Source of the DNA: Escherichia phage Fraca
Sequence record: LR597645
Direction: 5' to 3' (one strand)
DNA length: 43,664 nt
Made by a program: the position numbers and the translations under genes. Each line of letters begins with the position of its first letter. The first letter of the stretch is position 1. The notes under the pieces are model-generated. The model worked only from the letters and a program-made list of their open reading frames with translations. It did not search any database and was not told the origin of the DNA. This document shows positions 14,718 through 34,641 of the stretch, piece by piece.

Positions 14718-14723
14718 TGGAGA

Positions 14724-15382: not shown

Positions 15383-18300
15383 ATGGCTAAAACAATTACC
15401 GGACGAAAAGGGGGGAGCTCCAGTTCCCGAACTCCTACCGAACAGCCTGATGATCTGCAATCTGTAGCGAAGGCAAAGATCCTCGTTGCGCTTGGGGAAG
15501 GGGAGTTTGCTGGACAGCTCACCGGGAAGGATATCTACCTGGACGGAACGGCGCTGGAGAACGCCGACGGCTCCCAAAACTTCAGCGGCGTTACGTGGGA
15601 ATTCCGCGCGGGTACACAGGCCCAGAAGTACATTCAGGGCATTCCCGGTACCGAAAACGAAATCAGCGTGGGCACCGAGGTAACGAGCGCTACAGCGTGG
15701 ACACGAACCTTCACCAATACACAGCTTTCAGCGGTTCGTTTACGCCTGAAATGGCCTTCGCTTTTCAAGCAGGAGGACGATGGCGATCTGGTTGGTTACT
15801 CGGTTAATTATGCGATTGACTTGCAGACGGACGGCGGGACATGGCAGACAGTCCTCAATACCAGTGTGACCGGGAAAACGACCTCAGGTTATGAGCGTAG
15901 CCACCGTATTGATTTACCTCAGGCGGGCAGCACCTGGACAATCAGACTACGCAAAATTACCGCTGACGCCAACAGCGCGAAAATCGGCGACACGATGACG
16001 CTACAGAGCTTCACTGAGGTGATTGATGCGAAATTGCGATATCCGAACACCGCGCTGCTGTACATTGAATTCGACTCCAGCCAGTTTAATGGTTCTATAC
16101 CTCAGATCTCCTGTGAGCCTCGTGGCCGCGTTATTCGGGTTCCTGATACTTACGACCCGGAAACTCGATCTTACAGCGGGACATGGACCGGGGCGTTTAA
16201 GTGGGCATGGACGGATAACCCTGCGTGGATTTTTTACGATCTGGTTGTTTCTGACCGGTTCGGCCTCGGTCACCGTTTGACTGCTGCTAACATCGATAAA
16301 TGGACGCTTTATCAGGTCGCCCAGTATTGCGATCAGATGGTACCGGACGGTAAGGGTGGCGATGGAACAGAACCACGCTATACCTGCAACGTGTACATTC
16401 AGGACCGGAACGACGCTTACACAGTCCTGCGTGATTTTGCTGCTATTTTCCGTGGCATGACGTACTGGGGTGGCGATCAGATCGTTGCTCTGGCCGATAT
16501 GCCCCGTGATGTGGATTACAGCTACACGCGCGCTAATGTTGTTGGCGGTCGCTTCACCTATTCAAGCAGCACCACGAAAACCCGCTACACTACAGCGCTG
16601 GTTTCATGGTCCGATCCCGGTAACGCCTATGCTGACGCGATGGAACCCGTATTTGAGCAGGCTCTGGTGGCGCGGTACGGCTTCAATCAGCTGGAAATGA
16701 CAGCCATCGGCTGTACCAGGCAGTCAGAAGCGAACCGAAAGGGGCGCTGGGGTATTCTCACCAACAACAAGGATCGCGTTGTTTCGTTTGATGTCGGGCT
16801 GGACGGAAACATACCGCAGCCTGGCTATATCATCGCTGTGGCAGACGAGCTGCTTTCCGGAAAGGTTATGGGCGGACGCATCAGCGCCGTTAATGGTCGC
16901 GTTATCAAACTTGACCGTGTAGCTGATGCGGCAGCAGGTGATCGCCTTATCCTCAACCTTCCCTCCGGAGCGTCACAGAGCAGGACCATTCAGGCGGTTA
17001 ACGGGGAATCGGTCACAGTCACCACCGCGTACAGTGAGACGCCTCAGGTCGAAGCTGTCTGGGTGGTTGAGTCAAACGAACTCTACGCGCAGCAGTATCG
17101 TGTTGTGAGTGTCGCTGATAACGATGATGGCACTTTCACCATTACCGGTGCATGGCACGATCCGGATAAATATGCCCGAATCGATACCGGAGCCATCATT
17201 GACCAGCGGCCGGTGAGCGTGATCCCGCCGGGCAACCAGTCGCCGCCTGCGAACATCGTGATCAGCTCGTTTTCTGTGGTGCAGCAAAATATCAGCGTCG
17301 AAACGATGCGGGTGAGCTGGGACCAGGCGCAGAACGCTATCGCCTATGAAGCTCAATGGCGCCGCAACGACGGGAACTGGGTTAACGTGCCGCGCAGCTC
17401 CACCACGTCATTCGACGTTCCGGGGATTTATGCCGGGCGCTACCTGGTGCGCGTGCGCGCAATCAACGCCGCTGAAATTTCTTCCGGATGGGGGTATTCA
17501 GAAGAGAAAACGCTGACGGGTAAAGTGGGCAATCCACCGAAGCCGGTGGGTTTCATCGCGTCTGAAAACGTGGTTTTCGGTATCGAGCTGAACTGGGGAT
17601 TCCCGGCGAATACCGACGACACGCTGAAGACGGAAATTCAGTACAGCCTTACCGGTACCGAAGACGATGCGATGCTGCTGGCCGATGTGCCTTACCCGCA
17701 GCGCAAATATCAGCAGATGGGACTTAAGGCTGGGCAGATTTTCTGGTACCGCGCGCAGCTGGTGGACCGTAGCGGCAACGAATCAGGTTATACCGAATGG
17801 GTGCGAGGACAGGCCAGCATCGATGTTTCCGACATCACAGACGTGATCCTGGAGGAAATTAAGGACTCCGATACGTTCAAAGACCTGATCGAGAACGCGG
17901 TGGACAGCAACGAAAAAATTGCTGGCATGGCTGACGAAATCAAAAACCATGCTGACGAACTCGAGCAGCAGGCGAAAGACATCCAGGAGAACGCTGACGG
18001 GCTGGCTCAGGCCGAAGTGAAGATAGACGAGATCTCTGTGTCGATGGACGGCATGACGGGAGGTGTGAAGAACTCGGCAATTGCGATAATCCAGGCCAAT
18101 CTCGCTCAGGTGGCCACGCGTAAAACGCTGTCGGCATCGGTAGCCGGTAACAGCGCGCAGCTGGACCGCATTGATGAGGTGATCGTCACTGACAGGGAGG
18201 CAACGGCACGCGCATTGCTGAGCCTGCAGACGAACGTCAACGGCAATACGGCATCCATCAACAGTCTGAGCCAGACGGTTTCGAATTACCAGCAGACCAC

Positions 18301-18829
18301 GGCGACGCAGATAAACGCCATCACTGCGACCATAAACGGAAATACGGCGGCGATAACAACGAACGCCCAGGCAATTGCGAACGTAAACGGCCAACTCAGC
18401 GCGATGTACAACATCAAAGTTGCGGTAACGAGTAATGGCCAGTATTACGCCGCAGGCATGGGGATCGGGGTGGAGAATACGCCATCAGGGATGCAGTCGC
18501 AGGTAATCTTCCTGGCCGACCGTTTTGCCGTCACTACGGCAGCAGGAAACAGCGTGGCGTTGCCATTTGTGATCCAGAATGGTCAGACGTTCATCAGGGC
18601 CAGCTTCATTCAGGACGGTACCATTGAGAACGCCAAAATCGGTAACTATATCCAGTCGAATAACTATGTGGCTGGCTCGGCAGGCTGGAAACTTGATAAA
18701 GGCGGCACCTGGGAAAACTACGGCAGCGACGGTCAGGGAGCAAGAAAATCCACCAATGTCACTGACAGTATCAGGGATTCAAATGGCGTGCTCCGCGTGC
18801 AAATCGGCAAACTTACAGGGGTGTTTTGA
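15383..18829 (+). CDS. J: Host specificity / tip attachment protein J (central tail fibre)
   Basis: 1148 aa ORF in the lambda J position; fibronectin-like middle region and C-terminal receptor-binding region. Confidence 0.9.
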   Translation: MAKTITGRKGGSSSSRTPTEQPDDLQSVAKAKILVALGEGEFAGQLTGKDIYLDGTALENADGSQNFSGVTWEFRAGTQAQKYIQGIPGTENEISVGTEVTSATAWTRTFTNTQLSAVRLRLKWPSLFKQEDDGDLVGYSVNYAIDLQTDGGTWQTVLNTSVTGKTTSGYERSHRIDLPQAGSTWTIRLRKITADANSAKIGDTMTLQSFTEVIDAKLRYPNTALLYIEFDSSQFNGSIPQISCEPRGRVIRVPDTYDPETRSYSGTWTGAFKWAWTDNPAWIFYDLVVSDRFGLGHRLTAANIDKWTLYQVAQYCDQMVPDGKGGDGTEPRYTCNVYIQDRNDAYTVLRDFAAIFRGMTYWGGDQIVALADMPRDVDYSYTRANVVGGRFTYSSSTTKTRYTTALVSWSDPGNAYADAMEPVFEQALVARYGFNQLEMTAIGCTRQSEANRKGRWGILTNNKDRVVSFDVGLDGNIPQPGYIIAVADELLSGKVMGGRISAVNGRVIKLDRVADAAAGDRLILNLPSGASQSRTIQAVNGESVTVTTAYSETPQVEAVWVVESNELYAQQYRVVSVADNDDGTFTITGAWHDPDKYARIDTGAIIDQRPVSVIPPGNQSPPANIVISSFSVVQQNISVETMRVSWDQAQNAIAYEAQWRRNDGNWVNVPRSSTTSFDVPGIYAGRYLVRVRAINAAEISSGWGYSEEKTLTGKVGNPPKPVGFIASENVVFGIELNWGFPANTDDTLKTEIQYSLTGTEDDAMLLADVPYPQRKYQQMGLKAGQIFWYRAQLVDRSGNESGYTEWVRGQASIDVSDITDVILEEIKDSDTFKDLIENAVDSNEKIAGMADEIKNHADELEQQAKDIQENADGLAQAEVKIDEISVSMDGMTGGVKNSAIAIIQANLAQVATRKTLSASVAGNSAQLDRIDEVIVTDREATARALLSLQTNVNGNTASINSLSQTVSNYQQTTATQINAITATINGNTAAITTNAQAIANVNGQLSAMYNIKVAVTSNGQYYAAGMGIGVENTPSGMQSQVIFLADRFAVTTAAGNSVALPFVIQNGQTFIRASFIQDGTIENAKIGNYIQSNNYVAGSAGWKLDKGGTWENYGSDGQGARKSTNVTDSIRDSNGVLRVQIGKLTGVF

Positions 18830-21989: not shown

Positions 21990-22267
21990 TGTTTTTAAAT
22001 TTTGGGAAATTTACTGCGGGTGAGCATGCTGCCTTTTTGGCGTGTAGGGCCGATGCTGCCTGAGGTTGGCTAAAATTATCTGTGGGGCATGGATGGGGCA
22101 AAAGTGGTCTGTGAAGTTCGTTAAAGTTCGTTAATCAACCTTTATCTCGATCTCTCTCATCCCTTGTTTAAAGCGCTCCTGGACGATCTTTATCGATTTT
22201 AAAAACTATGAGTTCATATTATACAAATGTAGCGATATGACTGCTAACCACTTGAATTTAAGGTTTT
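21990..22267. other. Candidate attP region adjacent to the integrase 3' end
   Basis: AT-rich non-coding stretch with repeated TGGGGCA motifs (four copies) and direct repeat GTTCGTTAAAGTTCGTTAA. Confidence 0.45.
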
Positions 22268-23560
22268 CTACTGCGCTACTACCATGCTTTGGGGCAGTGA
22301 TGGGGCAGCGTGTGAAAGCGCCTGGTTGAGCAGAGCAACCTGCTCTCCACTCTTCTCTGACATCCACTTTCCATACACCTTGTAAACCATCTGTGCATCG
22401 GTATGTCCCATCTGAGTTGCTATAAAGTTCGGGTTAGCACCAGCCGATAATGACCAGCACGCATAGGTATGCCGTGACTGATAAGCGTTGCGGTAACGAA
22501 TACCGGCGCGCTTGATTATCGGAGCCCAAATTTTATTAATCGAATTAACCGCGTAGTGATATCCTGTGCGAGACCCACGTTTGACGCATTGAGGGCTGAA
22601 AACGAAAGTGCATGGATGTATGACTGACTGGCCATATTCCCGCAAATTCACTTCAACCTCATGCTGCCGGCCAAGGCGCGTCAGTTGGGCCTGATCCCTA
22701 AGGGCATCAATAGCTGGTTGTATGAGATAAATCACCCTGTCAGTGCCTGCCTCGGTTTTTGGCAGGGTGAACTCATACGTTTGGGTAAGGTTACGCTTAA
22801 CCGTAATGGTTCCCGCGGTGAGATCGATGTCTTCCCATGCAAGACCACATAATTCCCCATGCCTCATTCCGGTATAAACGGCGACGGTCCAGAGATTTCG
22901 CATCTGCTGGTGGCCGCATGCCTGAATGAACCTGATGAACTCGTCTGTAGTGAGTGGATCTGGTTCGTCTTTTGCCTTCCTGAGACGGTTAATTCCGCTA
23001 AACGGGTTTTCCTTTGCGTAGCCGTTATCAGCTCCAAACTGGAAGATCTCGGCCATCAGCATCATGTAATTATTCACCGTGGAAGACTTCCGGCCTTTTA
23101 CCTGTGTCCGGTGATCCTTCTTCATTACATGGAAGCCCGTCAGCAACTCCTTCCTTACATACAGCAAATCTTCAGTGGTAACCGCAGAAACCATTTTATT
23201 TTCGCCGATGCGCGGAAGCATGTTTTTTATGATGGATTCGTACCTACTCATGGTATTAGAGCTGATCTCCATTCTCTTCAGCTCTGACCATCTTTCGGTA
23301 AGCTCCAGCACAGTAATTTCCTTTCTATCCTGACCGAACCGGGCAAGGTTCGGTGAGTTTGGGAATTTTTCTGCATAGTTAAAATTCCCCATTCTTATCG
23401 CAAAACAAACCGAAGAACGCAGCTCGCCAGCTATCTTGCGATTTTTTGCAGTGTCAGGGACACCTAGGTTTTCCCTGACACGTTTACCTTTATACAGAAA
23501 CCAGATGCGGAGCGAACCGCCGTGGTTTTCGACGCCTGTCGGGTATGATGCATTAGCCAT
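22268..23560 (-). CDS. int: Tyrosine integrase
   Basis: ATG at 23560 with AGGAGGG RBS; C-terminal catalytic region with R...HxxR...Y (RHTYACWSL...MVYKVYGKW). Confidence 0.85.
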   Translation of the reverse strand: MANASYPTGVENHGGSLRIWFLYKGKRVRENLGVPDTAKNRKIAGELRSSVCFAIRMGNFNYAEKFPNSPNLARFGQDRKEITVLELTERWSELKRMEISSNTMSRYESIIKNMLPRIGENKMVSAVTTEDLLYVRKELLTGFHVMKKDHRTQVKGRKSSTVNNYMMLMAEIFQFGADNGYAKENPFSGINRLRKAKDEPDPLTTDEFIRFIQACGHQQMRNLWTVAVYTGMRHGELCGLAWEDIDLTAGTITVKRNLTQTYEFTLPKTEAGTDRVIYLIQPAIDALRDQAQLTRLGRQHEVEVNLREYGQSVIHPCTFVFSPQCVKRGSRTGYHYAVNSINKIWAPIIKRAGIRYRNAYQSRHTYACWSLSAGANPNFIATQMGHTDAQMVYKVYGKWMSEKSGEQVALLNQALSHAAPSLPQSMVVAQ

Positions 23561-23604
23561 TGATCCCTCCTGACGTCCAGGAGCGTGGACGAGTGTACTG
23601 CTTT

Positions 23605-23862
23605 TCATGCTGTCTTCGCACCTGGTTGATTTTTTTTCTGCGCCTCGATCCACAGATCAACGGCTTTCCTGTTGTACATGCATTCGCTCGAAGGCTTGGG
23701 ATTACCATCTGGTGAAATGTGCAGGTACTCGCGGCCCAGCATCCAGGATTCTTTTCTGGCGCGGGTGATGGTTCCGGGCTTGAGCCCGGTAACCGCAATC
23801 AGAACCTTTTCGCTAACCCAGTCATTCGGCACCAGAAGAACGATTTCAGCACTGGTTTGCAT
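23605..23862 (-). CDS. xis: Excisionase-like protein
   Basis: About 85 aa from ATG at 23862 with GGAGGA RBS; basic small protein immediately upstream of int. Confidence 0.6.
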   Translation of the reverse strand: MQTSAEIVLLVPNDWVSEKVLIAVTGLKPGTITRARKESWMLGREYLHISPDGNPKPSSECMYNRKAVDLWIEAQKKNQPGAKTA

Positions 23863-24217
23863 GGATCTCCTCCATTTTCTCTTTAGCCAGACGCACGCAA
23901 CGCGCAAAAGAGGAGGGCGTTACGATTTCGCGCAGAGCCTGAACCAGGAAGTCGTTGTGCTGCTGGTGTAGCTCCAGGTTGCGCTCTTTTTCCTCATGAC
24001 GCAGAACTGCCAAACGAGCTGTGATGATTCGACGCTTCCCTTTGATCAGCCGCAGCACGTTCTCTGCCTTTTTGCGCCATGTGCTCCAGTCACTACTGCT
24101 GTTCGATCTCGCCAGTTGCTCTTCAATACTGAGCTGCGCTTCTTCTGCGTTAACAAGCTGCTGCAGGCAATCGCTGATAGTGTCCAGGTTGTTTGTCTCC
24201 ACGAAGAATTTGTGCAT
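23846..24217 (-). CDS. Hypothetical coiled-coil protein
   Basis: ATG at 24217 with GGGAGGG RBS; 123 aa. Confidence 0.5.
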   Translation of the reverse strand: MHKFFVETNNLDTISDCLQQLVNAEEAQLSIEEQLARSNSSSDWSTWRKKAENVLRLIKGKRRIITARLAVLRHEEKERNLELHQQHNDFLVQALREIVTPSSFARCVRLAKEKMEEIHANQC

Positions 24218-24219
24218 TC

Positions 24220-24963
24220 TTAACCCTCCCACCCAATCGCCTGGAACAGGCCCATTTTAGGGTGATACCAGCGGGTGCCGCGCGGTTCAGCTTCTGACAT
24301 CATCTGGCGAAACGCGGCCATAAACGGCTCCAGTTCGACGATAGCCCTACGTGACAAAAGCCCGTCTGGAGTCATAAATTCGTGCGTGTCTGTCGGGATG
24401 CGGTAGGCATTGACCAAATTCCGGCACTTGGCGTCACTCATTCCGCTTTTGGCTACCACCTGGCGGTAACCGACATATCCGGCGCGCATGGTCCCGCGTT
24501 TGATGTTCTCCACAGCTTCAGTGACCGTTTCGATCTGCTCTTCAACATGATTCAGGCGCTTCTGCTGGCGAACGGCATCGGCGGCCATTGCGGCGATCAT
24601 CTCGATTTCCGTCAGCGGCGCGCGAGTGCGGAAATAGCTGTTAACCAGCTCACGCTGAACCTGCCAGGCCAGATCGTCCGTGAGTGACTTCGCCACCATC
24701 AGATATCCAGATTCGAAAAGCACAATTCCAGAGGGCGCAAACTTAGAAAACACACCTTCTGGAAGGTCCCGGCGTATAACGTCGGAACCTAATTCAACGT
24801 AATCGACCCCCTCGACAAAGTAGTTCCTGTTTTCACGAAAATTACGTCCTGCTGTTCCATCTGGTCGTTGGTGAGCTTCGTCAATCATTGCGAATGTCAC
24901 AACGCGCTGACCGCGATATTCGACTGCCGGCAGCTGTTTGTTATTGATCGTTACTGTGTTCAT
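24220..24963 (-). CDS. ORF6N-domain-like protein (antirepressor-related family)
   Basis: 247 aa; N-terminal region resembles ORF6N-type phage proteins; family assignment from memory only. Confidence 0.5.
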   Translation of the reverse strand: MNTVTINNKQLPAVEYRGQRVVTFAMIDEAHQRPDGTAGRNFRENRNYFVEGVDYVELGSDVIRRDLPEGVFSKFAPSGIVLFESGYLMVAKSLTDDLAWQVQRELVNSYFRTRAPLTEIEMIAAMAADAVRQQKRLNHVEEQIETVTEAVENIKRGTMRAGYVGYRQVVAKSGMSDAKCRNLVNAYRIPTDTHEFMTPDGLLSRRAIVELEPFMAAFRQMMSEAEPRGTRWYHPKMGLFQAIGWEG

Positions 24964-25008
24964 GCTCGATATCCTTCTGAGTGCCCGGCTTTACGCCGGG
25001 CTGGTGAA

Positions 25009-25836
25009 TCACTTAACCTGGATAAATGGAGTATTGGCGCCGCTGGTCATGTACTGGGGCAGAGTGCCGTTCCATTTGTTGATGGCCTCCAGTTGAAGCA
25101 CTTCAGGGTTTTCGCGCATGGCCTGCCCACGAATCTGGATAGACTTCGCTTCCGCTTCCGCCAGCTTCAACTTTGCGTCTGCCTGGCCATCTGCTTCAGC
25201 GCGCAGCATGTTTGCTTCGGCTTCACGCTGTTTCACTTCTTGCTCGCGCTGCAGGGTCTTCTGGTTGGCGGTGACTTTGGCGTTGATGCTGTCGATAACA
25301 GTCGGCGGGTACTCCGGACGGCCGACGTAAGAAAGGCTGATAACCTGGATTCCTACCGGACCCATGTCGGACTGAATCTCTTTCAGAGCATTTTCAAGCA
25401 GTTCAGCTTTCCCGCCGTCAATGAACTTATCGGTGCTCATGCGGCTTGCGAGACGATTAAGGGCATCGGCAATCTTTTGGCGCAAATCGGTGTCGGTGAT
25501 GTCGTCCACGCCTTTCCGATAGGTCTGAAACACCGTCGTCACTTTGGTCGGATCAACTTTATAGGCGACGCCGATGTGATAGCCGATGGTTGTGCCGTCA
25601 CTCATCTGGAAGTTGAAAGCGTCGTCGTAGGTTTTCATCTGTTTGAAGGTCGGGAAGATGTAAACCTCTGTGTTCCAGCCAGTCCAATAGCGGCCAACGC
25701 CTACCACTTCGCCAACGCCTTTATCGTCACCCAGCTTGTTGACCTTAATCCCAACGTTGCCAGGCTCAACACGATCACAACCAACGAGACCGACGGCAGA
25801 AAGCGCGATAATTGAAGCCATAATTGCTTTTTTCAT
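25009..25836 (-). CDS. SPFH (band 7 / prohibitin-like) domain lipoprotein
   Basis: 275 aa; signal peptide with lipobox LVGC; SPFH-like core and C-terminal Ala/Glu-rich coiled coil; start overlaps upstream stop (ATGA). Confidence 0.7.
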   Translation of the reverse strand: MKKAIMASIIALSAVGLVGCDRVEPGNVGIKVNKLGDDKGVGEVVGVGRYWTGWNTEVYIFPTFKQMKTYDDAFNFQMSDGTTIGYHIGVAYKVDPTKVTTVFQTYRKGVDDITDTDLRQKIADALNRLASRMSTDKFIDGGKAELLENALKEIQSDMGPVGIQVISLSYVGRPEYPPTVIDSINAKVTANQKTLQREQEVKQREAEANMLRAEADGQADAKLKLAEAEAKSIQIRGQAMRENPEVLQLEAINKWNGTLPQYMTSGANTPFIQVK

Positions 25837-26027
25837 TTTTTTTCCTTAGTTACGGTTACAACAAGACCCTTACAGATGACGTAGATGCACGGCGGGGTCA
25901 GAATCGCCAGGGCAAAACCGGATATAACTGCTGTTGTGTCCTTCATCGAAATGAGGATCGGAACGAACAGCCCATAAACGCTGGCGACAATCACCACCGA
26001 TAGAACAACGCGTAAGTAAGCAATCAT
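25833..26027 (-). CDS. Small two-TM membrane protein coupled to the SPFH gene
   Basis: About 64 aa from ATG at 26027; two hydrophobic segments; ATGA overlaps on both sides. Confidence 0.55.
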   Translation of the reverse strand: MIAYLRVVLSVVIVASVYGLFVPILISMKDTTAVISGFALAILTPPCIYVICKGLVVTVTKEKK

Positions 26028-26434
26028 CAGTTGATCCCTTCTGGTTTGCTGGCCTGGAGCTCCGCTTGCTCTTTCACGTAGCGGTCGTGCATGGAGTCCC
26101 ATTTCGCCAGCCACTTACGTGCTTCGCGCTTGCGTTCCAGAATTCGCCGAATGCGCCGCATACAGCGGTTGTGTGCAAAGAGATATTGCTGAGTGTGCTG
26201 GCCCATTCGATTGACGAGCACACCGTTGCTGAACACAGGCTCGTCTGGTTCGTTGGTATTCAAACCGGCCCGGCGAAATGTTTTGGTTACCATGTAGTGA
26301 GCCAGGTTGCTGATCGCCGCACTTCTGCTGAGGAAACGGCGCGAGTAACCGTGCCTCGATACGACATAAACTGGCTGCAACTCCGTAGTAAACGCTCTGT
26401 CGATTGAGGTGGTAGTAATGCGTTTATCGTTCAT
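26027..26434 (-). CDS. Hypothetical basic protein
   Basis: 135 aa; ATGA overlap with upstream and downstream genes. Confidence 0.5.
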   Translation of the reverse strand: MNDKRITTTSIDRAFTTELQPVYVVSRHGYSRRFLSRSAAISNLAHYMVTKTFRRAGLNTNEPDEPVFSNGVLVNRMGQHTQQYLFAHNRCMRRIRRILERKREARKWLAKWDSMHDRYVKEQAELQASKPEGIN

Positions 26435-26652
26435 TTGCGGTCCTTAACTTTGTTGTATCGTTCATGACTCATAACTTCCCAGTTCTGGCCTCCATCTCGT
26501 GAAAGCAGCCTCCAACGCAGGTTCACTTTTAGGCTGAGGTATCCAGTCCTGCGCATTCGCCGCGGTGAAATCCGCTGCTGCCGGAATTGCAGGAGAATTT
26601 TCACTGCCTGAAAGTGAACCCACTCAGGAATTCGTATCGCTGTCAGCGCCAT
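26431..26652 (-). CDS. Hypothetical small protein
   Basis: 73 aa; ATGA overlaps at both ends. Confidence 0.45.
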   Translation of the reverse strand: MALTAIRIPEWVHFQAVKILLQFRQQRISPRRMRRTGYLSLKVNLRWRLLSRDGGQNWEVMSHERYNKVKDRK

Positions 26653-27059
26653 CAGATCCGGGCCTCCACTTTTTGTTTTTTGACGAACTCAACCAGCTCA
26701 GAAATGAGCTCGTCGATTAATTCCTTTCCGCTATCTGTGAGGAATTCACCGCTGCCATTAACATCAACAGAGCTGCTGTAAATTCCCTTAATAGCTTTTA
26801 CGCCTTCGACATTCCCGTACTCACTAATCGCGAGCCTTTCGAATTTTCGTAATAATCCATCGAGAAGAATCTCTGTTAACTCGACCGTGTTAATACCGCC
26901 TTTATTGAGCTTAATAACAAGGCAGTTACTGCCCGTTTTACGCTGGTGGCGTAATAACGCTGCCTTTAAAATTCGGCGGCGGTAGGTTTCAATTACGTTG
27001 TTTTTCACGACGTTCAAACTCCGAATCCATCCACATTGAGACCTGAGCCGACAAGTCAA
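26652..27059 (-). CDS. Hypothetical protein (start uncertain)
   Basis: 135 aa track ORF with no internal Met; overlaps 26989-27192, so the true start may be a GTG/TTG near 27008. Confidence 0.4.
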   Translation of the reverse strand: MTCRLRSQCGWIRSLNVVKNNVIETYRRRILKAALLRHQRKTGSNCLVIKLNKGGINTVELTEILLDGLLRKFERLAISEYGNVEGVKAIKGIYSSSVDVNGSGEFLTDSGKELIDELISELVEFVKKQKVEARI

Positions 27060-27192
27060 GGCAGAGGCCAGACAGAGAAATTATGTGCTCGATATCCATA
27101 TCAATAATATTGGAGTTAATTAATTCCATTAATTGATACAGGTTATCTGCTGTGTTTTTTGCGGTTTCTAGAGAGCTGTCTTTACTGAGCAT
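26989..27192 (-). CDS. Hypothetical small acidic protein
   Basis: 67 aa from ATG at 27192. Confidence 0.4.
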   Translation of the reverse strand: MLSKDSSLETAKNTADNLYQLMELINSNIIDMDIEHIISLSGLCLDLSAQVSMWMDSEFERREKQRN

Positions 27193-27384
27193 ATTCAGAC
27201 CCCGTAAGCTTTGCGCATGAAAAGGTTAGAGATATGGCGGTATTCCTCACCATAGGTCGCGAAGAAAAGCCGTGCTGTTAAATACGCAGATTTATCTTTG
27301 ATGAATGTCATTTTTAACCTAATCCTGTTTTCAGGTTGCAGGAAGCCACACCAGTGAAGGTGTTATTTGTTTTATTATTTAGCG

Positions 27385-27813
27385 TTACTTATTGAATTCG
27401 ATCTTGTCCGCTTTAGAGCTAATAATGCTCTGCATTTCATCCAGTTTTTGGGAGACGAGACTTAAAACCCCAATTGAGTTTGATTCTGTTGGTATATCAT
27501 CCATTGAATTATAAACGGCAAGCTTACAATCGCCGATATCACAAGCCCAAGAGTTAAGTTGATTAGCTAGCGCTGTTGGCGACTCTAATTTTTGTCCCCG
27601 TTGACATTCAGCTCCAGCATGGATGCTAAGTTGCTCCACATACTCGTAAGCAGTTTGGCTGGTCTTTAGCATAGAACGAATCAGGCAGGCAATTGTGTTA
27701 TCGGCTTCCGGTGAAAATTCATTTATGCGGTAAATAACCTCCAGTAACGAAGCATTCTCAGTGATTTCCGCAGCAATATCATTTAGCATTTCGATTGGAT
27801 TTTTCATTAACAT
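27385..27813 (-). CDS. Hypothetical acidic protein in AT-rich island
   Basis: 142 aa; overlaps the upstream 66-aa gene by 7 nt; AT-rich codon usage unlike the structural genes. Confidence 0.5.
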   Translation of the reverse strand: MLMKNPIEMLNDIAAEITENASLLEVIYRINEFSPEADNTIACLIRSMLKTSQTAYEYVEQLSIHAGAECQRGQKLESPTALANQLNSWACDIGDCKLAVYNSMDDIPTESNSIGVLSLVSQKLDEMQSIISSKADKIEFNK

Positions 27814-28007
27814 TTATCCCATTCATTTTTATGGGCCTCGTTTGCATAGTTGCAGACAAACGCGAGAAGAATGTCGCTAATTTCTCTATACTCGTCATCA
27901 TCAACCGCCGATAACAAACTAGCTGCTTCAACAATCAAGGACATATTCTTGAAAGCATCACAAGGATGGATGGACAACCCCTTAAATGTTTTTATCTTCT
28001 GAGACAT
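27807..28007 (-). CDS. Hypothetical small protein, first gene downstream of the putative PL
   Basis: 66 aa ORF starting about 50 bp left of the OL-like operator cluster. Confidence 0.45.
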   Translation of the reverse strand: MSQKIKTFKGLSIHPCDAFKNMSLIVEAASLLSAVDDDEYREISDILLAFVCNYANEAHKNEWDKC

Positions 28008-28029
28008 TTTCTATCACCTCTGAGTTGAT

Positions 28030-28140
28030 TTGATAGAATGATGATAGAGCCTGCTATTGGTATTTGCAATAGATATTGCTATTTAAAATGCTATTGATTT
28101 TTATGTCTTTGATATCAAAAATAAAAAAAATCTATTGCTG
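28030..28140. promoter_or_regulatory. Putative OL/PL operator-promoter region
   Basis: Multiple CTATTG / CAATAG half-sites (28054-28096, 28132-28138) and palindrome TTTGATATCAAA, mirroring the motifs right of cI. Confidence 0.55.
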
Positions 28141-28426
28141 ATGTGTTTGTAACAGCACGGTAGAAATAATTGTCCTTTAGACAGTGATCTACCAATACAT
28201 GAGATATCGGGAGTTGGAGCATCGAAGCTTGAGAATTAAATGGACTGTGAAAGGGCGAGATACTCGCAGAGAGCAAGAGGGTAGGGTAGGAGTTCCGATC
28301 AGGTAGTCGCCCGCCTGGTTGACTGGTGGTTACTATTGTGGGGGCACATAGAAAACCCGACGCACTGGCCGGGTTAAGAATCCATTCAGCTTGTTATGCG
28401 TAAGTTTTTATTTTAATTTGCATTAT

Positions 28427-29134
28427 TCACCCATGCTTCCTGTAGGTCTGCGGCATGCTGCCGATCACCTTTCCGAAGATGAAAATTTTGTTCATCTCTT
28501 CCTTCTCGATTGGTTCCCATGGTAGATAGGTATGGTTGTCAGAGATAACTAAGAGTTTGTCTTTCATCTTTTGTAAGCGCTTAACATGCGATGTGTCATC
28601 GTAGATGAACGCGTATATACCGTCGCCGTCGAAATGCTGAACGCTGATATCGACGAAGAGTAAGTCCCCTGGCTCTATGGTGCCAGACATGCTATCACCT
28701 CGAACGTTGATGATGCGTATCTGCTCCTGTTTCCGGCCATTAAACATTTGACGGGCATCTTCAACTGAGTATTCCACGGAGCGCAGCACCTCCACGAATT
28801 CGCTGTTAATTATGCCCGGGCCAGCACTTACGGTAAGGTCGAGTACGTCAACTCTGAAGATGGCTGGATCTTTTTTGTTATTCATCGGTGGGGGTGGTTG
28901 TTGGTCGTCACCCCTCATTGGTCCAGTACCGTTTGATAGCCACTCCGAACGAACACCCAGGGCATTAGCTATTTCAACGATTTTGGTTGTGCCTCTAGCA
29001 TTTCCAGATGTTATTCGCCATATGGTTGGTTGTGCCATATTCGCCGCTTTGGCTAACTGACCCTGGCTCATGCCCATCTCATGCATTGCGTAGTTAAGTC
29101 TGTCAGCTAGCGTCTTAAGTGTTCTCTCTTGCAT
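28427..29134 (-). CDS. cI: CI-like repressor (HTH plus S24 LexA-like peptidase domain)
   Basis: ATG at 29134 with GGAGG RBS; N-terminal HTH; C-terminal GDSM...K catalytic dyad motif. Confidence 0.85.
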   Translation of the reverse strand: MQERTLKTLADRLNYAMHEMGMSQGQLAKAANMAQPTIWRITSGNARGTTKIVEIANALGVRSEWLSNGTGPMRGDDQQPPPPMNNKKDPAIFRVDVLDLTVSAGPGIINSEFVEVLRSVEYSVEDARQMFNGRKQEQIRIINVRGDSMSGTIEPGDLLFVDISVQHFDGDGIYAFIYDDTSHVKRLQKMKDKLLVISDNHTYLPWEPIEKEEMNKIFIFGKVIGSMPQTYRKHG

Positions 29135-29179
29135 ATTTATAGCCTCCGCTATCACATTCTAGTCAAGCATGATAAACAA

Positions 29180-29229
29180 GTCTATTGCTCATTCCAATAG
29201 CAATTGCTATTATAAGTTCGATAGCAACT
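29180..29229. promoter_or_regulatory. Putative OR/PRM/PR operator region between cI and cro
   Basis: Overlapping palindromes CTATTGCTCATTCCAATAG (29182-29200), AATAGCAATTGCTATT (29196-29211) and TTGCTAT-N10-ATAGCAA (29204-29227). Confidence 0.6.
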
Positions 29230-29248
29230 GAACGGGATTAGCAAAAAA

Positions 29249-29467
29249 ATGAAATCAGCAATTGAAAGAGCTATTGATGCTGCTGGAGGAGTAAATGCTC
29301 TAGCTCGCGCTATAGGTGTAAAACAACCCTCTGTCTCTCGCTGGAGAAAGGTTGGTGTTGTTGGGGTGGAACATGTGCCTGATGTTGCGGCCTTTACTGG
29401 GATTCCCGCCCATGAACTGAGACCTGACAAACCAAAATTATTCCCTCACCCGGGCAATGAGGTGTGA
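29249..29467 (+). CDS. cro: Cro-like HTH regulator
   Basis: 72 aa divergent from cI across the operator cluster; HTH region GGVNALARAIGVKQPSVSRW. Confidence 0.7.
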   Translation: MKSAIERAIDAAGGVNALARAIGVKQPSVSRWRKVGVVGVEHVPDVAAFTGIPAHELRPDKPKLFPHPGNEV

Positions 29468-29468
29468 C

Positions 29469-29678
29469 ATGTCACACCCAATCACTACCGAAAACCAAAT
29501 TAAGCCATTGGATATCGATTATCGCGATCCGCGCGGTGTGATTGTGCATGTCACCGGCTGGAATCGGGATAAACAGCAGGTGTATTTCACCAGACAGAAT
29601 TATCCGCATGAATGCATGCAGCCTGTCTGGAAGTTCCAACAATATTTTACGAAGGTCTCGGAGGCGCAAAATGCGTGA
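29469..29678 (+). CDS. Hypothetical protein (cII position)
   Basis: 69 aa; ATG at 29469 with GAGGTG RBS, 2 nt after the cro stop. Confidence 0.45.
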   Translation: MSHPITTENQIKPLDIDYRDPRGVIVHVTGWNRDKQQVYFTRQNYPHECMQPVWKFQQYFTKVSEAQNA

Positions 29679-30693
29679 TTACGGAAAGGTGTCTCCTCAC
29701 TTCTGGATTGGCAGAACAGGCAAAGAGCTGCGTCAGGCTGGGCCAGAGTCTCAGCTTGTGGCGTTGTACCTGCTTACCAGTCCGCACGCCAATATGATCG
29801 GTCTTTATTACATGCCCCTTGCGTTCCTGTCTCATGAGACTGGATTAACCTTGGAAGGGGCTAAGAAGGGGCTTAATAGCGCCATTAAAGCCGGGTTTTG
29901 TAAGTACGACGAGCATTCAGAGATGGTGTGGGTCATCGAAATGGCAACGCATCAAATCGGCGAGGCGCTGAAACCCGGAGACAAGCGCTGTACTGGAGTA
30001 CAGAACGAATACAACAAAGTATCGGATAACCTATTTCTTTCAGAGTTTTACGAGAAATATTCGAAGCAGTTCAATATGACCTGTCCCCGTAGTAGTGAGC
30101 TCCAGATCCCGGAAGTAAATGAAGGGGCTTCAAAGGGGCTTGCAAGCCAAGAGCAGGAACAGGAGCAGGAGAAAGAACAAGATCAAACTAATTTGTCCGA
30201 TTCGAATCGGACTGATGGCGATAAACCTGACGAGTCGAAAGGGAAACCTTCACAGGAAAAACCTGATTCAGAATCAGATGATGCTGAAGGCCAAGATCCA
30301 GTCGATGTCGCTTTCGAAAATATTTTTTGGGGGGCAGGTCTGAGAAAGGATGCCAAGGTCAAGGCTAAGTCAGCGTTCAGGACCAAATATCGCGACTGGA
30401 AAAAAGCGAACCGAGGTACGCCTGAGAACTTCGCCGTTATGCTGGCTGAAGATATCAGCCTCCGGGTGAAAACACAGCAAATGGGGTTCGACAAACTCCT
30501 GCCAGCGTCATACCTGAACGGAGAGCGCTGGAACGATGAAAAACCAAATGGAGCTCCTCAGATATCCGCAAGCGCAAACGCCATCGGTGGGACAGGTGCT
30601 TCCTGGTTCGCAAAACCAAGTGACGGTTCGGCTGAGGTATTTATCAGCCAGGCAGCCATTGACCGCATGAAGCGCGGAGCTAACCGCCCATGA
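29671..30693 (+). CDS. Putative replication initiation / DNA-binding protein with acidic low-complexity linker
   Basis: 340 aa from ATG at 29671; lies upstream of the primase-helicase; EQ/D-rich linker around 30130-30300. Confidence 0.45.
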   Translation: MRDYGKVSPHFWIGRTGKELRQAGPESQLVALYLLTSPHANMIGLYYMPLAFLSHETGLTLEGAKKGLNSAIKAGFCKYDEHSEMVWVIEMATHQIGEALKPGDKRCTGVQNEYNKVSDNLFLSEFYEKYSKQFNMTCPRSSELQIPEVNEGASKGLASQEQEQEQEKEQDQTNLSDSNRTDGDKPDESKGKPSQEKPDSESDDAEGQDPVDVAFENIFWGAGLRKDAKVKAKSAFRTKYRDWKKANRGTPENFAVMLAEDISLRVKTQQMGFDKLLPASYLNGERWNDEKPNGAPQISASANAIGGTGASWFAKPSDGSAEVFISQAAIDRMKRGANRP

Positions 30694-30796
30694 AAAGAAT
30701 CCTCAAACGTCTACTGGTTGCTGGCTATAACCGCGGCTTTTTGCGTGAGGAATTCGTGACTATGTGCTTTATAAAATTCGATTTACGGAGTGTGTG

Positions 30797-32668
30797 ATGA
30801 CCCCTGCTGAGTTATCTGAAAAATTATGGGACAACGCCGAAAGAGTTGCGAAATACCTGCTTCCACGAGGACACCTCGAGGGCAAGGAGTGGTGCGCTGG
30901 TAATACCAATGGTGATGCCGGTAAGAGCCTGAAAATTAATCTCGGTGGTAAGAAGACTTGGGCAGATTTTGCAAGCGGCGACAGCGGAGACCTGCTTGAT
31001 CTTTGGGTTCTGGTGCGTAACTGCCAGCTGCACGACGCTATGCGGGAAGCGAAAGAGTTCCTTGGGCTGAAGGACGACGATAACCACTTCGAGGCGAAGA
31101 AAAAAACCTTCTCACGTCCAACCAAAAAAGGCGTTAAAAAGGCGAGCCATTGCTACGACTACCTCTCTTCCCGTGGCATCACCCGAGAGACAGCTGATCA
31201 ATTCCGTGTTTCGGACGCAGTCGTCTGGTACCACGATGAAAACCGCGAAATTCCGGCAGTGGCGTTTCCGTATCTTCGCAACGGTGAGCTTTTGCAGGTA
31301 AAGCGAATCGGCACTGAACGACCAAATGGCAAAAAGTTGATCATGGCTGAAGCTGATTGCGAGCCATGTCTGTTTGGCTGGCAGGCTATGGACGCGAAAG
31401 CTCGCGCTGTTGTGCTTTGCGAAGGAGAGATTGACTGTATGACCTACTCGCAATTCGGTATCAGTGCTCTATCGGTACCGTTCGGCGGTGGAAAAGGGGC
31501 CAAACAGCAATGGATCGAATACGAGTATCACAACCTCGACCGATTCGAAGAAATTTGGTTAAGCCTCGATAACGATGATGTAGGGCGCGAAGCCGCAAAA
31601 GAAATTGCTCGTCGTCTAGGGGAGCATCGTTGCCGCCTGGTAGAGCTGCCGCACAAAGATATCAATGAATGCCTGACCTCCGGGATGAGCGAGGATGAAA
31701 TCTGGCACTACTTGGGGACCGCTAAATTCTTTGACCCTGATGAACTCTGCTCTGCGGGTGATCTCCTTCAGGAAACACTGGATGCGTTCGAGCATCGAGA
31801 CGTTGGATTATTTTCCAGCCCGTGGGATTCGCTGAACAGTAATTTCAAATTCCGCGCCGGCGAGCTGACGCTGGTTAACGGAGTAAACGGCCACGGAAAA
31901 ACCGAGCTGGTGGGACATATCGCCGTCAATGCCATGAGCCAGGGAGTCCGGGTATGCATTGCCTCGCTGGAGCTTAAGCCTGGGAAAATGTTGGCTCGTC
32001 TTACCCGGCAAACCATTTGTAGAAAAAACCCAGAACGTACTGAAATCATCATGACTAACGAGTGGTTTTCTGATCGTCTTTGGGTGTTCAAACTCACCGG
32101 AACAGCCAAGGCCGATCGCCTGCTGGAAATATTTGCCTATGCCAGACGCCGCTATGGAATCGATCTTTTCGTTATCGACAACTTGGCAAAATGTGGACTC
32201 GATGAAGAGGACTACGGTGGACAAAAAGAATTTATCGATACCCTCTGCGACTTTAAAAACGAGCACAACTGCCATGTTCTGCTGGTAACGCATGCCAGAA
32301 AAACAAACGAAGCTGCACCAACAGGGAAAATGGATGTTAAAGGCACTGGCGCTTTAACTGACATGCCCGACAACGTTATGGCCGTCTGGCGTAATATCCC
32401 GCGCGAACTGGCGCAGCGCAAAGCTGAAAGAATGGGGTATGAGAGCCTTGATAAGGACGAACAGACTGCTATCCAAATGCCCGCTTCGATGATCCGCCTG
32501 TTGAAACAACGTGAAGGGGAAGGCTGGATCGGAGACATAGGGGCTAACTTTGATTCCCGCTCACACCAGTTTATCGAGGGTGATAAAGGGCCCTTCAATT
32601 ACTTGGCCGGCAAACAGCAAAGTGAACTTGATATTGAGTGGGAAGCCACCAACGCAACGAGGTATTAA
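30797..32668 (+). CDS. DNA primase-helicase (Toprim plus DnaB/RecA-like ATPase)
   Basis: ATG at 30797; Toprim-like VLCEGEIDCMT; Walker A GVNGHGKTE; Walker B-like LFVIDNL. Confidence 0.75.
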   Translation: MTPAELSEKLWDNAERVAKYLLPRGHLEGKEWCAGNTNGDAGKSLKINLGGKKTWADFASGDSGDLLDLWVLVRNCQLHDAMREAKEFLGLKDDDNHFEAKKKTFSRPTKKGVKKASHCYDYLSSRGITRETADQFRVSDAVVWYHDENREIPAVAFPYLRNGELLQVKRIGTERPNGKKLIMAEADCEPCLFGWQAMDAKARAVVLCEGEIDCMTYSQFGISALSVPFGGGKGAKQQWIEYEYHNLDRFEEIWLSLDNDDVGREAAKEIARRLGEHRCRLVELPHKDINECLTSGMSEDEIWHYLGTAKFFDPDELCSAGDLLQETLDAFEHRDVGLFSSPWDSLNSNFKFRAGELTLVNGVNGHGKTELVGHIAVNAMSQGVRVCIASLELKPGKMLARLTRQTICRKNPERTEIIMTNEWFSDRLWVFKLTGTAKADRLLEIFAYARRRYGIDLFVIDNLAKCGLDEEDYGGQKEFIDTLCDFKNEHNCHVLLVTHARKTNEAAPTGKMDVKGTGALTDMPDNVMAVWRNIPRELAQRKAERMGYESLDKDEQTAIQMPASMIRLLKQREGEGWIGDIGANFDSRSHQFIEGDKGPFNYLAGKQQSELDIEWEATNATRY

Positions 32669-32669
32669 A

Positions 32670-32981
32670 ATGGATCGCCTAATTAGAGAAATGTCGTATC
32701 TCTTTACCAAGCAGCGTTTTATGGAGCTTCAGGAAACGGCAAAAGACATCGCAATCGGTCATAGTGATTTTCCTGAGTGTTTCGGTCTTATTGCTGACGC
32801 CATCGCTGAATTTGTTGAAGACACTCCTGATGATGAGTGGCGAGAGCATGAAAAAATCCTTATGCACTACGTTGCTATGCGTGTTCTGACGCTGTGGGGT
32901 AACGGCGATAAAGTGACTGATGTCCAGTGGGCACACCCTGGCTGGTTTGGCACTGCTGAAAAGGGGGAAACCATTCAATGA
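32670..32981 (+). CDS. Hypothetical protein
   Basis: 103 aa; ATG at 32670 two nt after the primase-helicase stop; overlaps the next start. Confidence 0.5.
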   Translation: MDRLIREMSYLFTKQRFMELQETAKDIAIGHSDFPECFGLIADAIAEFVEDTPDDEWREHEKILMHYVAMRVLTLWGNGDKVTDVQWAHPGWFGTAEKGETIQ

Positions 32982-33760
32982 AGTTGGAAGCATCACTAAA
33001 ACACTTTAGCCCTCAGGGTGTGCACATCAGCGACGACGTGAAAGGAACCTCTCCGGATCGTCTCACCGGCACTGATGTAATGGCGGCAATTGGCACCACC
33101 AGCAGCCGTGCGCGCTTCGGACTGGCGGCGTTCTTCGGTAAAGCGGGAATCAGCAAAACGGATGAACAGCTCGCAGTTCAGGCGCTGGCGCGATATGCGA
33201 TGGATGTCGCACCGAAGAATGTTCGCAAAGCAGCTGGTGGGCAGTTCGGATGGTGCATGCAGATGCTGGCACAATTTGCCTTTGCTGATTACTCCCGTTC
33301 AGCGGCTACCAGCGTGACGTGTCACAGCTGCAGTGGTACCGGGTTTATCTTCGGTAATGAGGATGTGGTTAAACATCCTGGTATTTTCGATGCAGACGGT
33401 GCCGAAGTGGTGGCTCCGAAGATAAAAAATGAGCTGGTGAAAAGGGTTTGCGGAACATGCGGAGGAAAGAAAGTGATCCTTGCCCGGTGCAGGTGCGGCG
33501 GTAAAGGCGAAGTGTTGGACCGCAAAGCGACTAAAGACAGCGGCGCACCGGTTTTCAAAACGTGTGAACGTTGCTCTGGTAATGGCTTCTCTGCTATCTC
33601 CTCGGCGACGGTACACCGTGCCATTCTGAAGCGTCTCCCTGACCTCCATCAGTCCTCATGGTCACGCAACTGGAAACCCTTTTATGAAATGCTGGTGGAC
33701 ACTCTGCGCCAGGGGGAGCGTCATGCAGCAGTGGAATTTGAGAAGGCGACAACTTATTAA
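32978..33760 (+). CDS. Putative late antiterminator Q-like protein with DnaJ-type zinc finger repeats
   Basis: 260 aa with four CxxCxGxG motifs; sits between replication genes and the late promoter/lysis region. Confidence 0.5.
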   Translation: MKLEASLKHFSPQGVHISDDVKGTSPDRLTGTDVMAAIGTTSSRARFGLAAFFGKAGISKTDEQLAVQALARYAMDVAPKNVRKAAGGQFGWCMQMLAQFAFADYSRSAATSVTCHSCSGTGFIFGNEDVVKHPGIFDADGAEVVAPKIKNELVKRVCGTCGGKKVILARCRCGGKGEVLDRKATKDSGAPVFKTCERCSGNGFSAISSATVHRAILKRLPDLHQSSWSRNWKPFYEMLVDTLRQGERHAAVEFEKATTY

Positions 33761-33802
33761 TATGATCGGAACAAATGGCGACACTTTTTTGCACGTTAGT
33801 GT

Positions 33803-33840
33803 TGACTTTGCATAAAACTGTCCTGTATGCTTCTGATTAT
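33803..33840 (+). promoter_or_regulatory. Candidate late promoter (PR'-like)
   Basis: TTGACT at 33803-33808, then 17-18 nt spacer and weak -10 (TATGCT); followed about 40 nt later by a terminator. Confidence 0.35.
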
Positions 33841-33876
33841 GGAGTATAGCGCCTGTAGATAATTAACCTCTAAAAG

Positions 33877-33903
33877 CCCGCCACGTTGCGGGTTTTTTTA
33901 TTT
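33877..33903 (+). terminator. Intrinsic terminator (tR'-like) in the late leader
   Basis: CCCGCCACGTTGCGGG hairpin followed by an 11-nt T-rich tract. Confidence 0.7.
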
Positions 33904-34195
33904 CCAGCAAGGTTTTTCTTCATTGCGTTTGTTATGTTGTGTTTTTTAACTGAGGGTCAGTTGATGAGCGCAGATGAAAACTTGTTGAGTAAAATTCAGG
34001 AAGTACGGACGGTAGAGGATGTGGAGCAAGTCAATTTGGGCCTTTCTAAAGGCTGGGTGATTTTGATGATCACCGAGAGCTCTACAGTCTGGGAAGATGG
34101 CAGCAAAAGCAGCCTTGTTACATATCACATGGGCAAGCCGAAGGCATTGCCGGTCTGATCAAGCCTTACCAAATCAAAAATTTCAATCATATATA

Positions 34196-34219
34196 GGCCA
34201 CCTCACGGTGGCCTTTTTT
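34196..34219 (+). terminator. Intrinsic terminator
   Basis: GGCCACCTCACGGTGGCC hairpin followed by a T6 tract. Confidence 0.7.
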
Positions 34220-34436
34220 GTTTCCCCTCGTTCTGAGAGGACTCATGGCAATGATGCATTGACCGTAGGAATGAATTCGGCGTAACTTATTTATGTGGTG
34301 AATTCTTTCTAAGCGAAAGGGCGTTCCAGTCAACTGCTATTTGCAGGTATGCGCGCGTCTTTGCTAACTGGGGCAGAGACACCGGGAGGCACCCGGCACC
34401 ATGACAACAACAATACAATTTTGAAATTCCTTGAGA

Positions 34437-34464
34437 GCCTGCCATAAAACGCAGGCCTTTTTTT
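34437..34464 (+). terminator. Intrinsic terminator
   Basis: GCCTGCCATAAAACGCAGGC hairpin followed by a T7 tract. Confidence 0.6.
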
Positions 34465-34613
34465 ATGGTTTTGTTAACTGCTGCTACGCTTTGAGTTGTG
34501 GGAAGTTCCTGAATGCCCGGTGGTTCTCCTGAACCTGGCGTGAATCAGCCGATACAGCTTCATCCGGGATGCAAGATCAACTCACACCTACCTCACAAAT
34601 AGTCAACTCATTG

Positions 34614-34641
34614 GCCCGCTTCATAAGAGCGGGCTTTTTTT
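34614..34641 (+). terminator. Intrinsic terminator upstream of the holin
   Basis: GCCCGCTTCATAAGAGCGGGC hairpin followed by a T7 tract. Confidence 0.7.

Follow-up and report, generated by a model that had tools for sequence, protein, structure and literature searches.

An exchangeable cassette of genes for predicted helical-hairpin proteins, bounded by a covarying RNA hairpin, at the probable head of the early-left operon of Escherichia phage Fraca

What do the first genes of the early-left operon do in a phage where an N-type antiterminator would be expected in their place? We examined this question in Escherichia phage Fraca (LR597645), using the whole 43,664-nt stretch, here called the window. 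An earlier note on this DNA had described an AT-rich island of small acidic genes at 27196-28007 and had suggested that the phage may rely on a put-like RNA or another antitermination mechanism, and that the island may be a recently acquired anti-defence or exclusion cassette. We consider it highly probable, taking both statements together, that the window represents a temperate phage of Enterobacteriaceae, kin to phages SaltyDalty and LMessi, the Stx2f phage phi467 and Fels-1-type prophages, and that the island is the promoter-proximal cassette of a CI-repressed early-left operon. We tentatively propose that its two genes, A and B-C, may encode immediate-early proteins that bind other proteins and modulate the early regulatory circuit of the phage itself.

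A sigma-70-like leftward promoter, PL, lies within 33 nt that mirror, in inverted form, the rightward promoter and operator, PR/OR (28041-28073 vs 29181-29213, 76% complementary). Four CTATTG half-sites are found around it within 85 bp, and the near-palindrome AATAGATATTGCTATT at 28068-28083 matches the OR palindrome AATAGCAATTGCTATT. The transcript probably starts near 28034, leaving a leader of ~27 nt up to the first ATG. Since PL mirrors PR/OR, is surrounded by the four half-sites and would start so close to the first ATG, we regard it as repressor-controlled. The 66-aa and 140/142-aa genes stand directly behind it and are the first genes leftward of PL, as the earlier note had it. An intrinsic terminator after cI insulates the PL operon from cI transcription. 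Lying behind a repressor-controlled promoter and downstream of this terminator, A and B-C should be silent in the lysogen.

Both open reading frames (ORFs) exist and both products are acidic, as had been described: A has an isoelectric point (pI) of 4.88 and a net charge of -4.3 over 66 aa, and the longest-ORF reading of B-C (27385-27813, 142 aa) a pI of 4.44 and a net charge of -10.4. Every homologue of B-C starts at the second ATG (MKNPIE/MKTPI, 140 aa), as does the SaltyDalty annotation, and the real A/B-C junction is therefore a 1-nt TAATG stop/start overlap; the overlap of 7 nt given earlier applies to the longest ORF alone. Translation of the two genes is coupled. In the related loci A was never seen without B directly downstream, and A and B share the stop/start overlap. 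Full-length homologues of A and B-C are 49-97% identical, and both genes are under purifying selection, with a ratio of nonsynonymous to synonymous substitution rates (dN/dS) of 0.06-0.37. Neither protein has an arginine-rich N-terminus (MSQKIKTFKGL in A, MKNPIEMLND in B-C), in agreement with the first reading of the sequence. Searches of Pfam, NCBIfam and PADLOC (the last covering defence systems, not anti-defence) gave nothing for A, B-C or the 38-aa and 67-aa proteins encoded further along the operon. In PHROGs, A, B-C and the 67-aa protein match function-unannotated families, and the 38-aa protein has no match. The profile matches of A (4587) and of B-C/B (27579/6882) had E values of 1e-28, 1.1e-51 and 1.7e-21, and membership in PHROG 4587, 27579/6882 or 8959 gives no function because these families have no characterised member.

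B-C consists of two modules, B (residues 3-62, with the motif ACLIRS; PHROG 6882) and C (residues ~79-138), separated by a hypervariable linker. AlphaFold2 (AF2) predicted a short beta-hairpin plus a helical hairpin for A (predicted local distance difference test score, pLDDT, 81) and four helices in two hairpins for B-C (best pLDDT 77). The predicted products of A and B-C are thus small, moderately acidic and all-helical, built from exchangeable helical-hairpin modules. Foldseek comparison of the AF2 models with PDB and BFVD returned generic helical-bundle matches only, all with E > 0.008, and a profile search of PDB with the modules gave nothing meaningful, one match being a designed repeat protein. 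By hhalign there was no significant similarity among modules A, B, C, D and E, and a common origin of the modules is therefore not claimed.

The same modules recur in other arrangements. B is found alone (63-76 aa) and in B-C, D-B and B-E; C alone makes a protein of 78 aa, and A occurs in one or two copies. In phi467 and EKP1, B alone directly follows an A homologue. C is 50% identical to the C-terminus of the helix-turn-helix (HTH) protein of LMessi, and in protein P0007 a B domain is joined to a C domain that is identical at 54/56 residues to the C of the LMessi HTH-C protein. An exhaustive profile search with hidden Markov models across 1.84 billion protein representatives yielded only 58 clusters, and all those with a given source name are from Enterobacteriaceae prophages. 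Among the proteins found were fusions of the types B-HTH (P0057, P0072, P0089 and P0094), B-HTH-HTH (P0081 and P0083), C-HTH-HTH (P0095) and HTH-C (P0054, from LMessi); the HTH domains of the B and C fusions are XRE-type. The 'DicA' of phi467 combines an A-like domain with an HTH, a weakly supported assignment (E = 0.009). The two fusions with annotated flanks, P0083 and P0072, each come right after an HTH+S24 repressor gene that has the same orientation, and the LMessi HTH-C gene comes after cI with one small ORF between them. P0095 is on a 2.4-kb contig, where the upstream gene has no Pfam annotation on record. All plasmid and genome matches with inspected annotated context were in the same prophage context.

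We collected 125 related loci and mapped their genes with profiles. The gene order is kept: cI, PL spacer, first cassette, 38-aa gene, 67-aa gene (in part of the loci), 118-aa gene (PHROG 1737), ParE-like gene (likewise), 135-aa gene (PHROG 1886) and, further on, the gene of an ORF6N protein. The first cassette varies as a mosaic, also among loci whose 118-aa genes share 93-99% identity. The window type [A][B-C] was found at 31 loci, the LMessi type [HTH-C][S24-only protein] at 17, [97-aa acidic protein][S24-only protein] at 13, [A][B] at 8 and [A][A][B-C] at 4, with [D-B]..., [B-E] and others at fewer loci. Phages with downstream genes 93-99% identical can thus carry quite different genes in the slot, and the description of the island as an exchangeable cassette stands; the gene downstream of the boundary hairpin (see below) keeps this 93-99% identity across cassette classes. 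Cassette class tracks cI class, with one class per cluster in the ten cI clusters formed at identity of at least 70%. B-type cassettes adjoin five different cI clusters, and no cI cluster mixes B-type and HTH-C-type cassettes. Because cassette class follows cI class, the unit of exchange is cro, cI, the operators and the first cassette, and these parts move together as a single immunity block.

The GC content of 27196-28007 is 0.404 vs 0.516 for the window (z = -2.8; lowest 1.7% of 812-bp windows), so that the region is visibly more AT-rich than the rest of the genome, as originally noticed. The low-GC tract is broader than first stated and spans ~26594-28773. Across the 125 related loci, the slot from cI to the 38-aa gene is AT-rich whatever its gene content, with a mean GC of 0.394 (0.36-0.42) vs 0.513 in the 2 kb downstream. 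The same cassette is present at 95-100% identity in many phages. As the slot is AT-rich in every relative, we concluded that AT-richness is a stable property of the slot and not evidence of recent acquisition, which the earlier note had suspected. Only two tracts of such low GC are present in the window. The other one, at 13770-15086 (GC 0.39-0.43), has plus-strand ORFs at 13814-14332, 14339-14674 and 14724-15329, none with a Pfam match, and a 1148-aa ORF (15383-18829) directly downstream.

At its 3' edge the cassette ends in a small RNA hairpin, after which the conserved operon backbone starts. It is flanked by an A/U-rich run before and by GG plus a C/A-rich stretch after, with no U tract. 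The hairpin follows the first cassette in most related loci, whichever gene comes next, and phi467 and L123 add variants. Its 4-bp core is paired in 79/80 cells across 20 distinct variants, with compensatory changes at two pairs (A-U to G-C in four variants and C-G to G-C in two) and with G-U intermediates in four variants, which are tolerable on the transcript strand only. RNAalifold independently recovered the same four pairs. We concluded from this covariation that the hairpin is a real RNA structure on the PL transcript. The lack of a U tract means that it is not an intrinsic terminator. The loop varies between phages with near-identical downstream genes (TTCACT, TTTCTT and TTTTAG), and a loop-closing mismatch is found in about eight loci (L019 type). 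A second copy was sought in the PR operon and none was found; the hairpin is single-copy in the early region. Candidate roles are RNA processing, RNA stability and an early stop that depends on a factor. A plus-strand scan had flagged the same hairpin as a terminator of an antisense RNA; this candidate was rejected, the G-U pairs of 4/20 variants being A-C mismatches on the other strand.

How might such a cassette act? On derepression, PL most probably transcribes A and B-C directly across the leader of ~27 nt. B and C, and more weakly an A-like domain, would correspond to the non-DNA-binding domain of XRE-type HTH proteins that occupy exactly this slot elsewhere. Because the modules are fused to HTH domains in other phages, the HTH-less A and B-C would act via the same protein-protein interface and not as RNA-binding N-like antiterminators; they could serve as adaptors or, like SinI towards SinR, as antagonists or decoys. 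The target might be an XRE-type regulator, RNA polymerase or some other host factor. The features that point, if tentatively, to such modulators are the mirroring of PR/OR by PL and its operators, the cI terminator, purifying selection, the helical fold, modularity, the HTH fusions, the restriction to one slot, the linkage to immunity and the A-B partnership.

Several points weigh against the modulator proposal. No experiment, homology or structural match links any module to function. The AF2 prediction for B-C is only moderately confident, one of five models reaching pLDDT 77 and the others 49-58, and no homology among modules A-E could be detected. A scan of 10 kb (22001-32000) detected no HTH protein carrying A, B or C, so a decoy would have to act on something else or on a target in another phage. 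Physical linkage alone could explain why cassette and cI correlate, the two being ~1 kb apart. The HTH fusions are also typical of self-regulating anti-defence genes (e.g., anti-CRISPR-Aca) and do not discriminate between the readings.

A more far-reaching form of the modulator proposal, for which we would give only a small chance, is that the slot after cI houses an undescribed early regulatory system: interchangeable helical-hairpin modules with or without their own HTH, free modules pairing with HTH-fused ones, and a boundary hairpin, together setting early-left expression. Pairing of modules (cf. P0007 B-C and LMessi HTH-C, with C identical at 54/56 residues) might take place within one phage or between co-resident phages. 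If true, protein modules would here be the counterpart to the logic of N/nut, and they could also give prophages a route of cross-talk.

The alternative that survives best, although we think it rather unlikely, is that A and B-C are anti-defence or host-takeover effectors, that is, early inhibitors in a slot that is an arms-race hot spot, with the HTH in fused relatives only autoregulating, as in Aca. Small and acidic products of the first genes expressed would suit this role, as would an AT-rich, hypervariable and mosaic slot between conserved flanks, the narrow taxonomic range (58 clusters, in Enterobacteriaceae prophages where the source is named) and the recurrent HTH fusion, a known theme for anti-CRISPRs. 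Set against it, the modules have no similarity to solved or predicted structures of known inhibitors, they were not seen outside the cI-adjacent slot where context was inspected, cassette class tracks cI class, and the dN/dS range does not point to diversifying selection. The proteins carry a moderate net charge (-4 and -10), far from that of DNA mimics; with values of -4.3/66 aa and -10.4/142 aa, and with no fold or sequence match, A and B-C do not resemble DNA-mimic anti-restriction proteins of the Ocr/ArdA type. Our search of the literature on related phages, lambdoid early-left anti-defence and N-less phages found nothing bearing on these genes. If they are anti-defence genes nevertheless, the slot would be a compact hot spot for mining new inhibitors.

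The remaining alternatives depend on antitermination, and we therefore give the results on N and put systems before them. No N-family match was found among the nine proteins from PL to 25833 (Pfam and PHROGs) or among three more (SPFH, ORF6N and excisionase; Pfam only); the 128-aa ORF at 23846-24232 was scanned against PADLOC and NCBIfam only, and the integrase was not scanned. Among the PL genes, only the fifth (118-aa protein) encodes an arginine-rich helix. BoxA-like matches were at chance level, none correctly placed, and no boxA/boxB pair was present. Matches to intrinsic terminators between PL and int and between PR and Q were likewise at chance level and none was convincing (the Rho-dependent type is not predictable from sequence); two terminator-like matches on the transcribed strand of the PL operon are both inside coding sequence. 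With no N match, chance-level boxA, too short a leader and no convincing early terminator, the premise that an N-type factor is expected here is weak; the phage has a Q-family antiterminator and four terminators on the late side. Nothing shows that A and B-C replace an N antiterminator.

The idea of a put-like RNA in the PL leader fared no better. Two adjacent long stem-loops (~65-70 nt) shortly after both PL and PR, as in the put system of HK022, were not found, and the PR side offers no counterpart. Within its first 1.5 kb the PL operon has a single non-coding gap, of 73 nt, and the sole conserved RNA there is the single stem of 4-5 bp described above. Rfam gave no match for the whole window at gathering thresholds or for 26900-29300 at permissive thresholds, the presence of a put model in Rfam not being confirmed.

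Protein-only antitermination, which we judge very unlikely, would make the hairpin and the C-rich sequence a factor-dependent (e.g., Rho) early stop like tL1 that a first-cassette product lets RNA polymerase pass, this product being tethered to DNA via the HTH in some phages and here binding RNA polymerase or Rho directly. The layout of promoter, cassette and conserved RNA element equals PL-N-tL1 of lambda in almost all relatives, the covariation and the G-U pairs fit the transcript strand only, and a stem of 4-5 bp is too weak to fold stably alone, which suggests a factor. The hairpin lacks a U tract, however, its loops differ between phages with near-identical downstream genes, about eight loci have the loop-closing mismatch, and the PR operon has no equivalent element. 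No convincing early intrinsic terminator was found that would need override, and Rho dependence is not predictable from sequence.

Least probable, and hardly credible to us, are two further explanations. In the first, the N system is displaced downstream, the 118-aa basic protein being the N analogue with its arginine-rich helix binding the hairpin as boxB. The motif YRRRIxxAALxRxxRKTG in this N-terminal helix is conserved in all members of the 118-aa family, and the hairpin lies upstream of the gene in the same transcript. This is outweighed by the absence of a Pfam or PHROG N assignment, of boxA and of a second hairpin in the PR operon, and by the loops TTCACT, TTTCTT and TTTTAG beside 118-aa copies that are 93-99% identical. 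Most of the 118 residues past the motif are conserved and the whole protein is fused in frame to a ParE-like domain in some relatives, unlike N, which is a disordered protein; translational coupling to the ParE-like protein points to a toxin-partner role. The second explanation, that of a recently acquired foreign cassette for superinfection exclusion or defence that is expressed in the lysogen, fits the atypical composition and the exchangeability but conflicts with the repressor-controlled promoter downstream of the cI terminator, the equal AT-richness of the slot in all relatives, the lack of a PADLOC match and the wide occurrence of the same cassette at 95-100% identity.

Table 1. Features of the early region of the window.
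Feature	Coordinates	Strand	Remarks
73-aa protein	26431..26652	minus	ParE-like toxin domain PF24732, E = 3e-21
118-aa basic protein	26652..27008	minus	PHROG 1737; labelled 'Fels-1 prophage protein' by one source
67-aa acidic protein	26989..27192	minus	pI 4.4; PHROG 8959; within AT-rich tract; in many relatives, not all
38-aa basic protein	27195..27311	minus	pI 9.6; consensus MTFIxDKxAY...RKAYG; first backbone gene after hairpin
Hairpin	27348..27363	minus	A-CACC-uucacu-GGUG-U (transcript); 3' edge of cassette, in 73-nt gap after B-C
Gene B-C	27385..27807	minus	140 aa (142 aa from 27813); pI 4.4; ATG at 27807 supported by homologues
Gene A	27807..28007	minus	66 aa; pI 4.9; PHROG 4587; strong Shine-Dalgarno GAGGTGA
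PL promoter	28041..28069	minus	TTGCAA-17-TATCAT; promoter match and mirror of PR/OR
OL operator cluster	28054..28142		Four CTATTG half-sites and near-palindrome
Intrinsic terminator after cI	28354..28375	minus	8-bp stem, then T run; same hairpin after cI in relatives
CI repressor	28427..29155	minus	HTH + S24 peptidase; context
Cro/YdaS-like gene	29249-29467	plus
Q-family antiterminator	32978-33760		PF03589, E = 1e-52

The backbone after the hairpin begins with the 38-aa gene, which the earlier note had listed as a possible ORF abutting the next gene. It is a real gene, separated by a 2-nt spacer from the 67-aa gene, and its coordinates had been one base off. Homologues of 35-38 aa are found at the equal position in nearly all of the 125 related loci, with dN/dS of 0.08-0.26. 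The description of the island as one of small acidic genes is correct for the 66-aa and 140/142-aa proteins, and not for this one, which is basic. A similarity of 80% over 25 nt links the initiation region of the 38-aa gene (27305-27329) to that of cro (29231-29255). A nutL/nutR pair was considered for it and rejected; relatives with the same operators have unrelated cro leaders, and for this reason the similarity is probably due to chance. Further along, the 118-aa gene overlaps the start of the 73-aa ParE-like gene by 1 nt, and the two are fused in one ORF in several relatives (L015, L109 and L121; P0116, P0129 and P0130). Their sequences suggest a toxin-partner pair inside the early-left operon. 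Also in this operon (25009-26114, minus strand) are the gene of a 275-aa SPFH/Band 7 protein, which is probably a lipoprotein, and, overlapping it, that of a membrane protein of 93 aa; the position of the SPFH gene is kept in relatives, including prophages on plasmids.

Rightward, the Cro/YdaS-like gene is followed by an O-like gene, a primase/helicase gene and then the Q-family antiterminator. At 33738-33766, overlapping the end of Q, is a PR'-like promoter (TTGAGA-17-TATGAT); four strong intrinsic terminators come after it, at 33872-33897, 34195-34214, 34437-34456 and 34613-34635. The late leader (33738-34635) is unusually long and multi-terminator, and no tRNA genes were found. The spacer of ~280 nt from the cI terminator to PL (28070-28354) is C-rich and G-poor on the transcribed strand, with a plus-strand GC skew of +0.17. 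The SaltyDalty annotation places a 55-aa ORF in this spacer; the window has no convincing ORF there. The spacer could be a Rho-loading back-up stop or a gene remnant. A small RNA or small gene was rejected for it, the fold z-score being only -1.5, with no conserved ORF established and no Rfam match.

The distribution of the island bears on the host of the phage. It is 95% identical to that of Escherichia phage SaltyDalty and is almost absent from 5,426 complete E. coli genomes, which gave 4 partial matches, none covering A or B-C. Close homologues are found in prophages of Enterobacter, Citrobacter, Klebsiella and Salmonella, and a 40-kb Enterobacter hormaechei 'plasmid' carries the island at 97%. 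Enterobacter or a close relative is the more likely host. Contamination is the probable source of a 756-bp contig labelled Kocuria sabuli (L011) that matches the island at 99% identity. 'Elizabethkingia phage EKP1' (L003) and 'Aeromonas phage AsXd-1' (MH178096) share an early region of enterobacterial type, and their host labels look doubtful for that reason. In LMessi-type phages (L004, 3258-4142; 17 IMG/VR loci) the HTH-C protein gene is followed by the hairpin and then by a gene for a 130-aa S24-peptidase-only protein, a pair that resembles a split CI repressor.

Uncharacterised early accessory or regulatory genes are common in temperate phages, and the cassette is in this sense an ordinary, well-delimited object. 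What is new here is its modular make-up, with HTH fusions in other phages, and the boundary hairpin with its covariation. Some medical relevance attaches to early regulation of induction, because the relative phi467 is a Shiga-toxin 2f phage. Among known systems, anti-CRISPR/Aca operons (e.g., AcrIIA1-type HTH fusions) are likewise variable loci whose operons begin with genes for small early proteins, recurrently with an HTH fused or adjacent. The cassette differs from them in that no Acr or Aca homology was seen in the searches above, CI operators govern its expression, and its modules are confined to one slot and track immunity type.

In Bacillus subtilis, SinI/SinR (and SlrA/SlrR) pair an XRE-type HTH repressor with a small antagonist that has the same helical oligomerisation domain. 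The likeness, which we offer as a lead, is that two-helix modules here are both fused to XRE-type HTH domains and present as free small proteins. Such domain sharing is seen at the family level across phages, with B and C both free and HTH-fused; within one genome it is seen in phi467 only, where a free A gene lies beside the A-like-HTH gene, the latter being the weak match noted above (E = 0.009). The modules differ in having no sequence or significant structural similarity to SinI or SinR, and in the window no HTH partner with A, B or C was detected in the part scanned.

Compared with lambda N/nut (also P22 gp24 and phage 21 N), only the position is alike: the first genes after a CI-controlled PL, then a conserved RNA element, with the cassette inherited together with the immunity region, like N in imm21. 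A and B-C have no arginine-rich motif or N homology, boxA and paired nutL/nutR are lacking, and no convincing early intrinsic terminator was found. Lambda N is basic and disordered; for A and B-C, which are acidic, the prediction is a folded helical bundle. If the modules are regulators, they would be a second solution to the job of the first PL gene in lambdoid phages, one that uses protein-protein and HTH modules instead of N/nut RNA, and the inheritance of the first cassette together with cI, cro and the operators would be accounted for.

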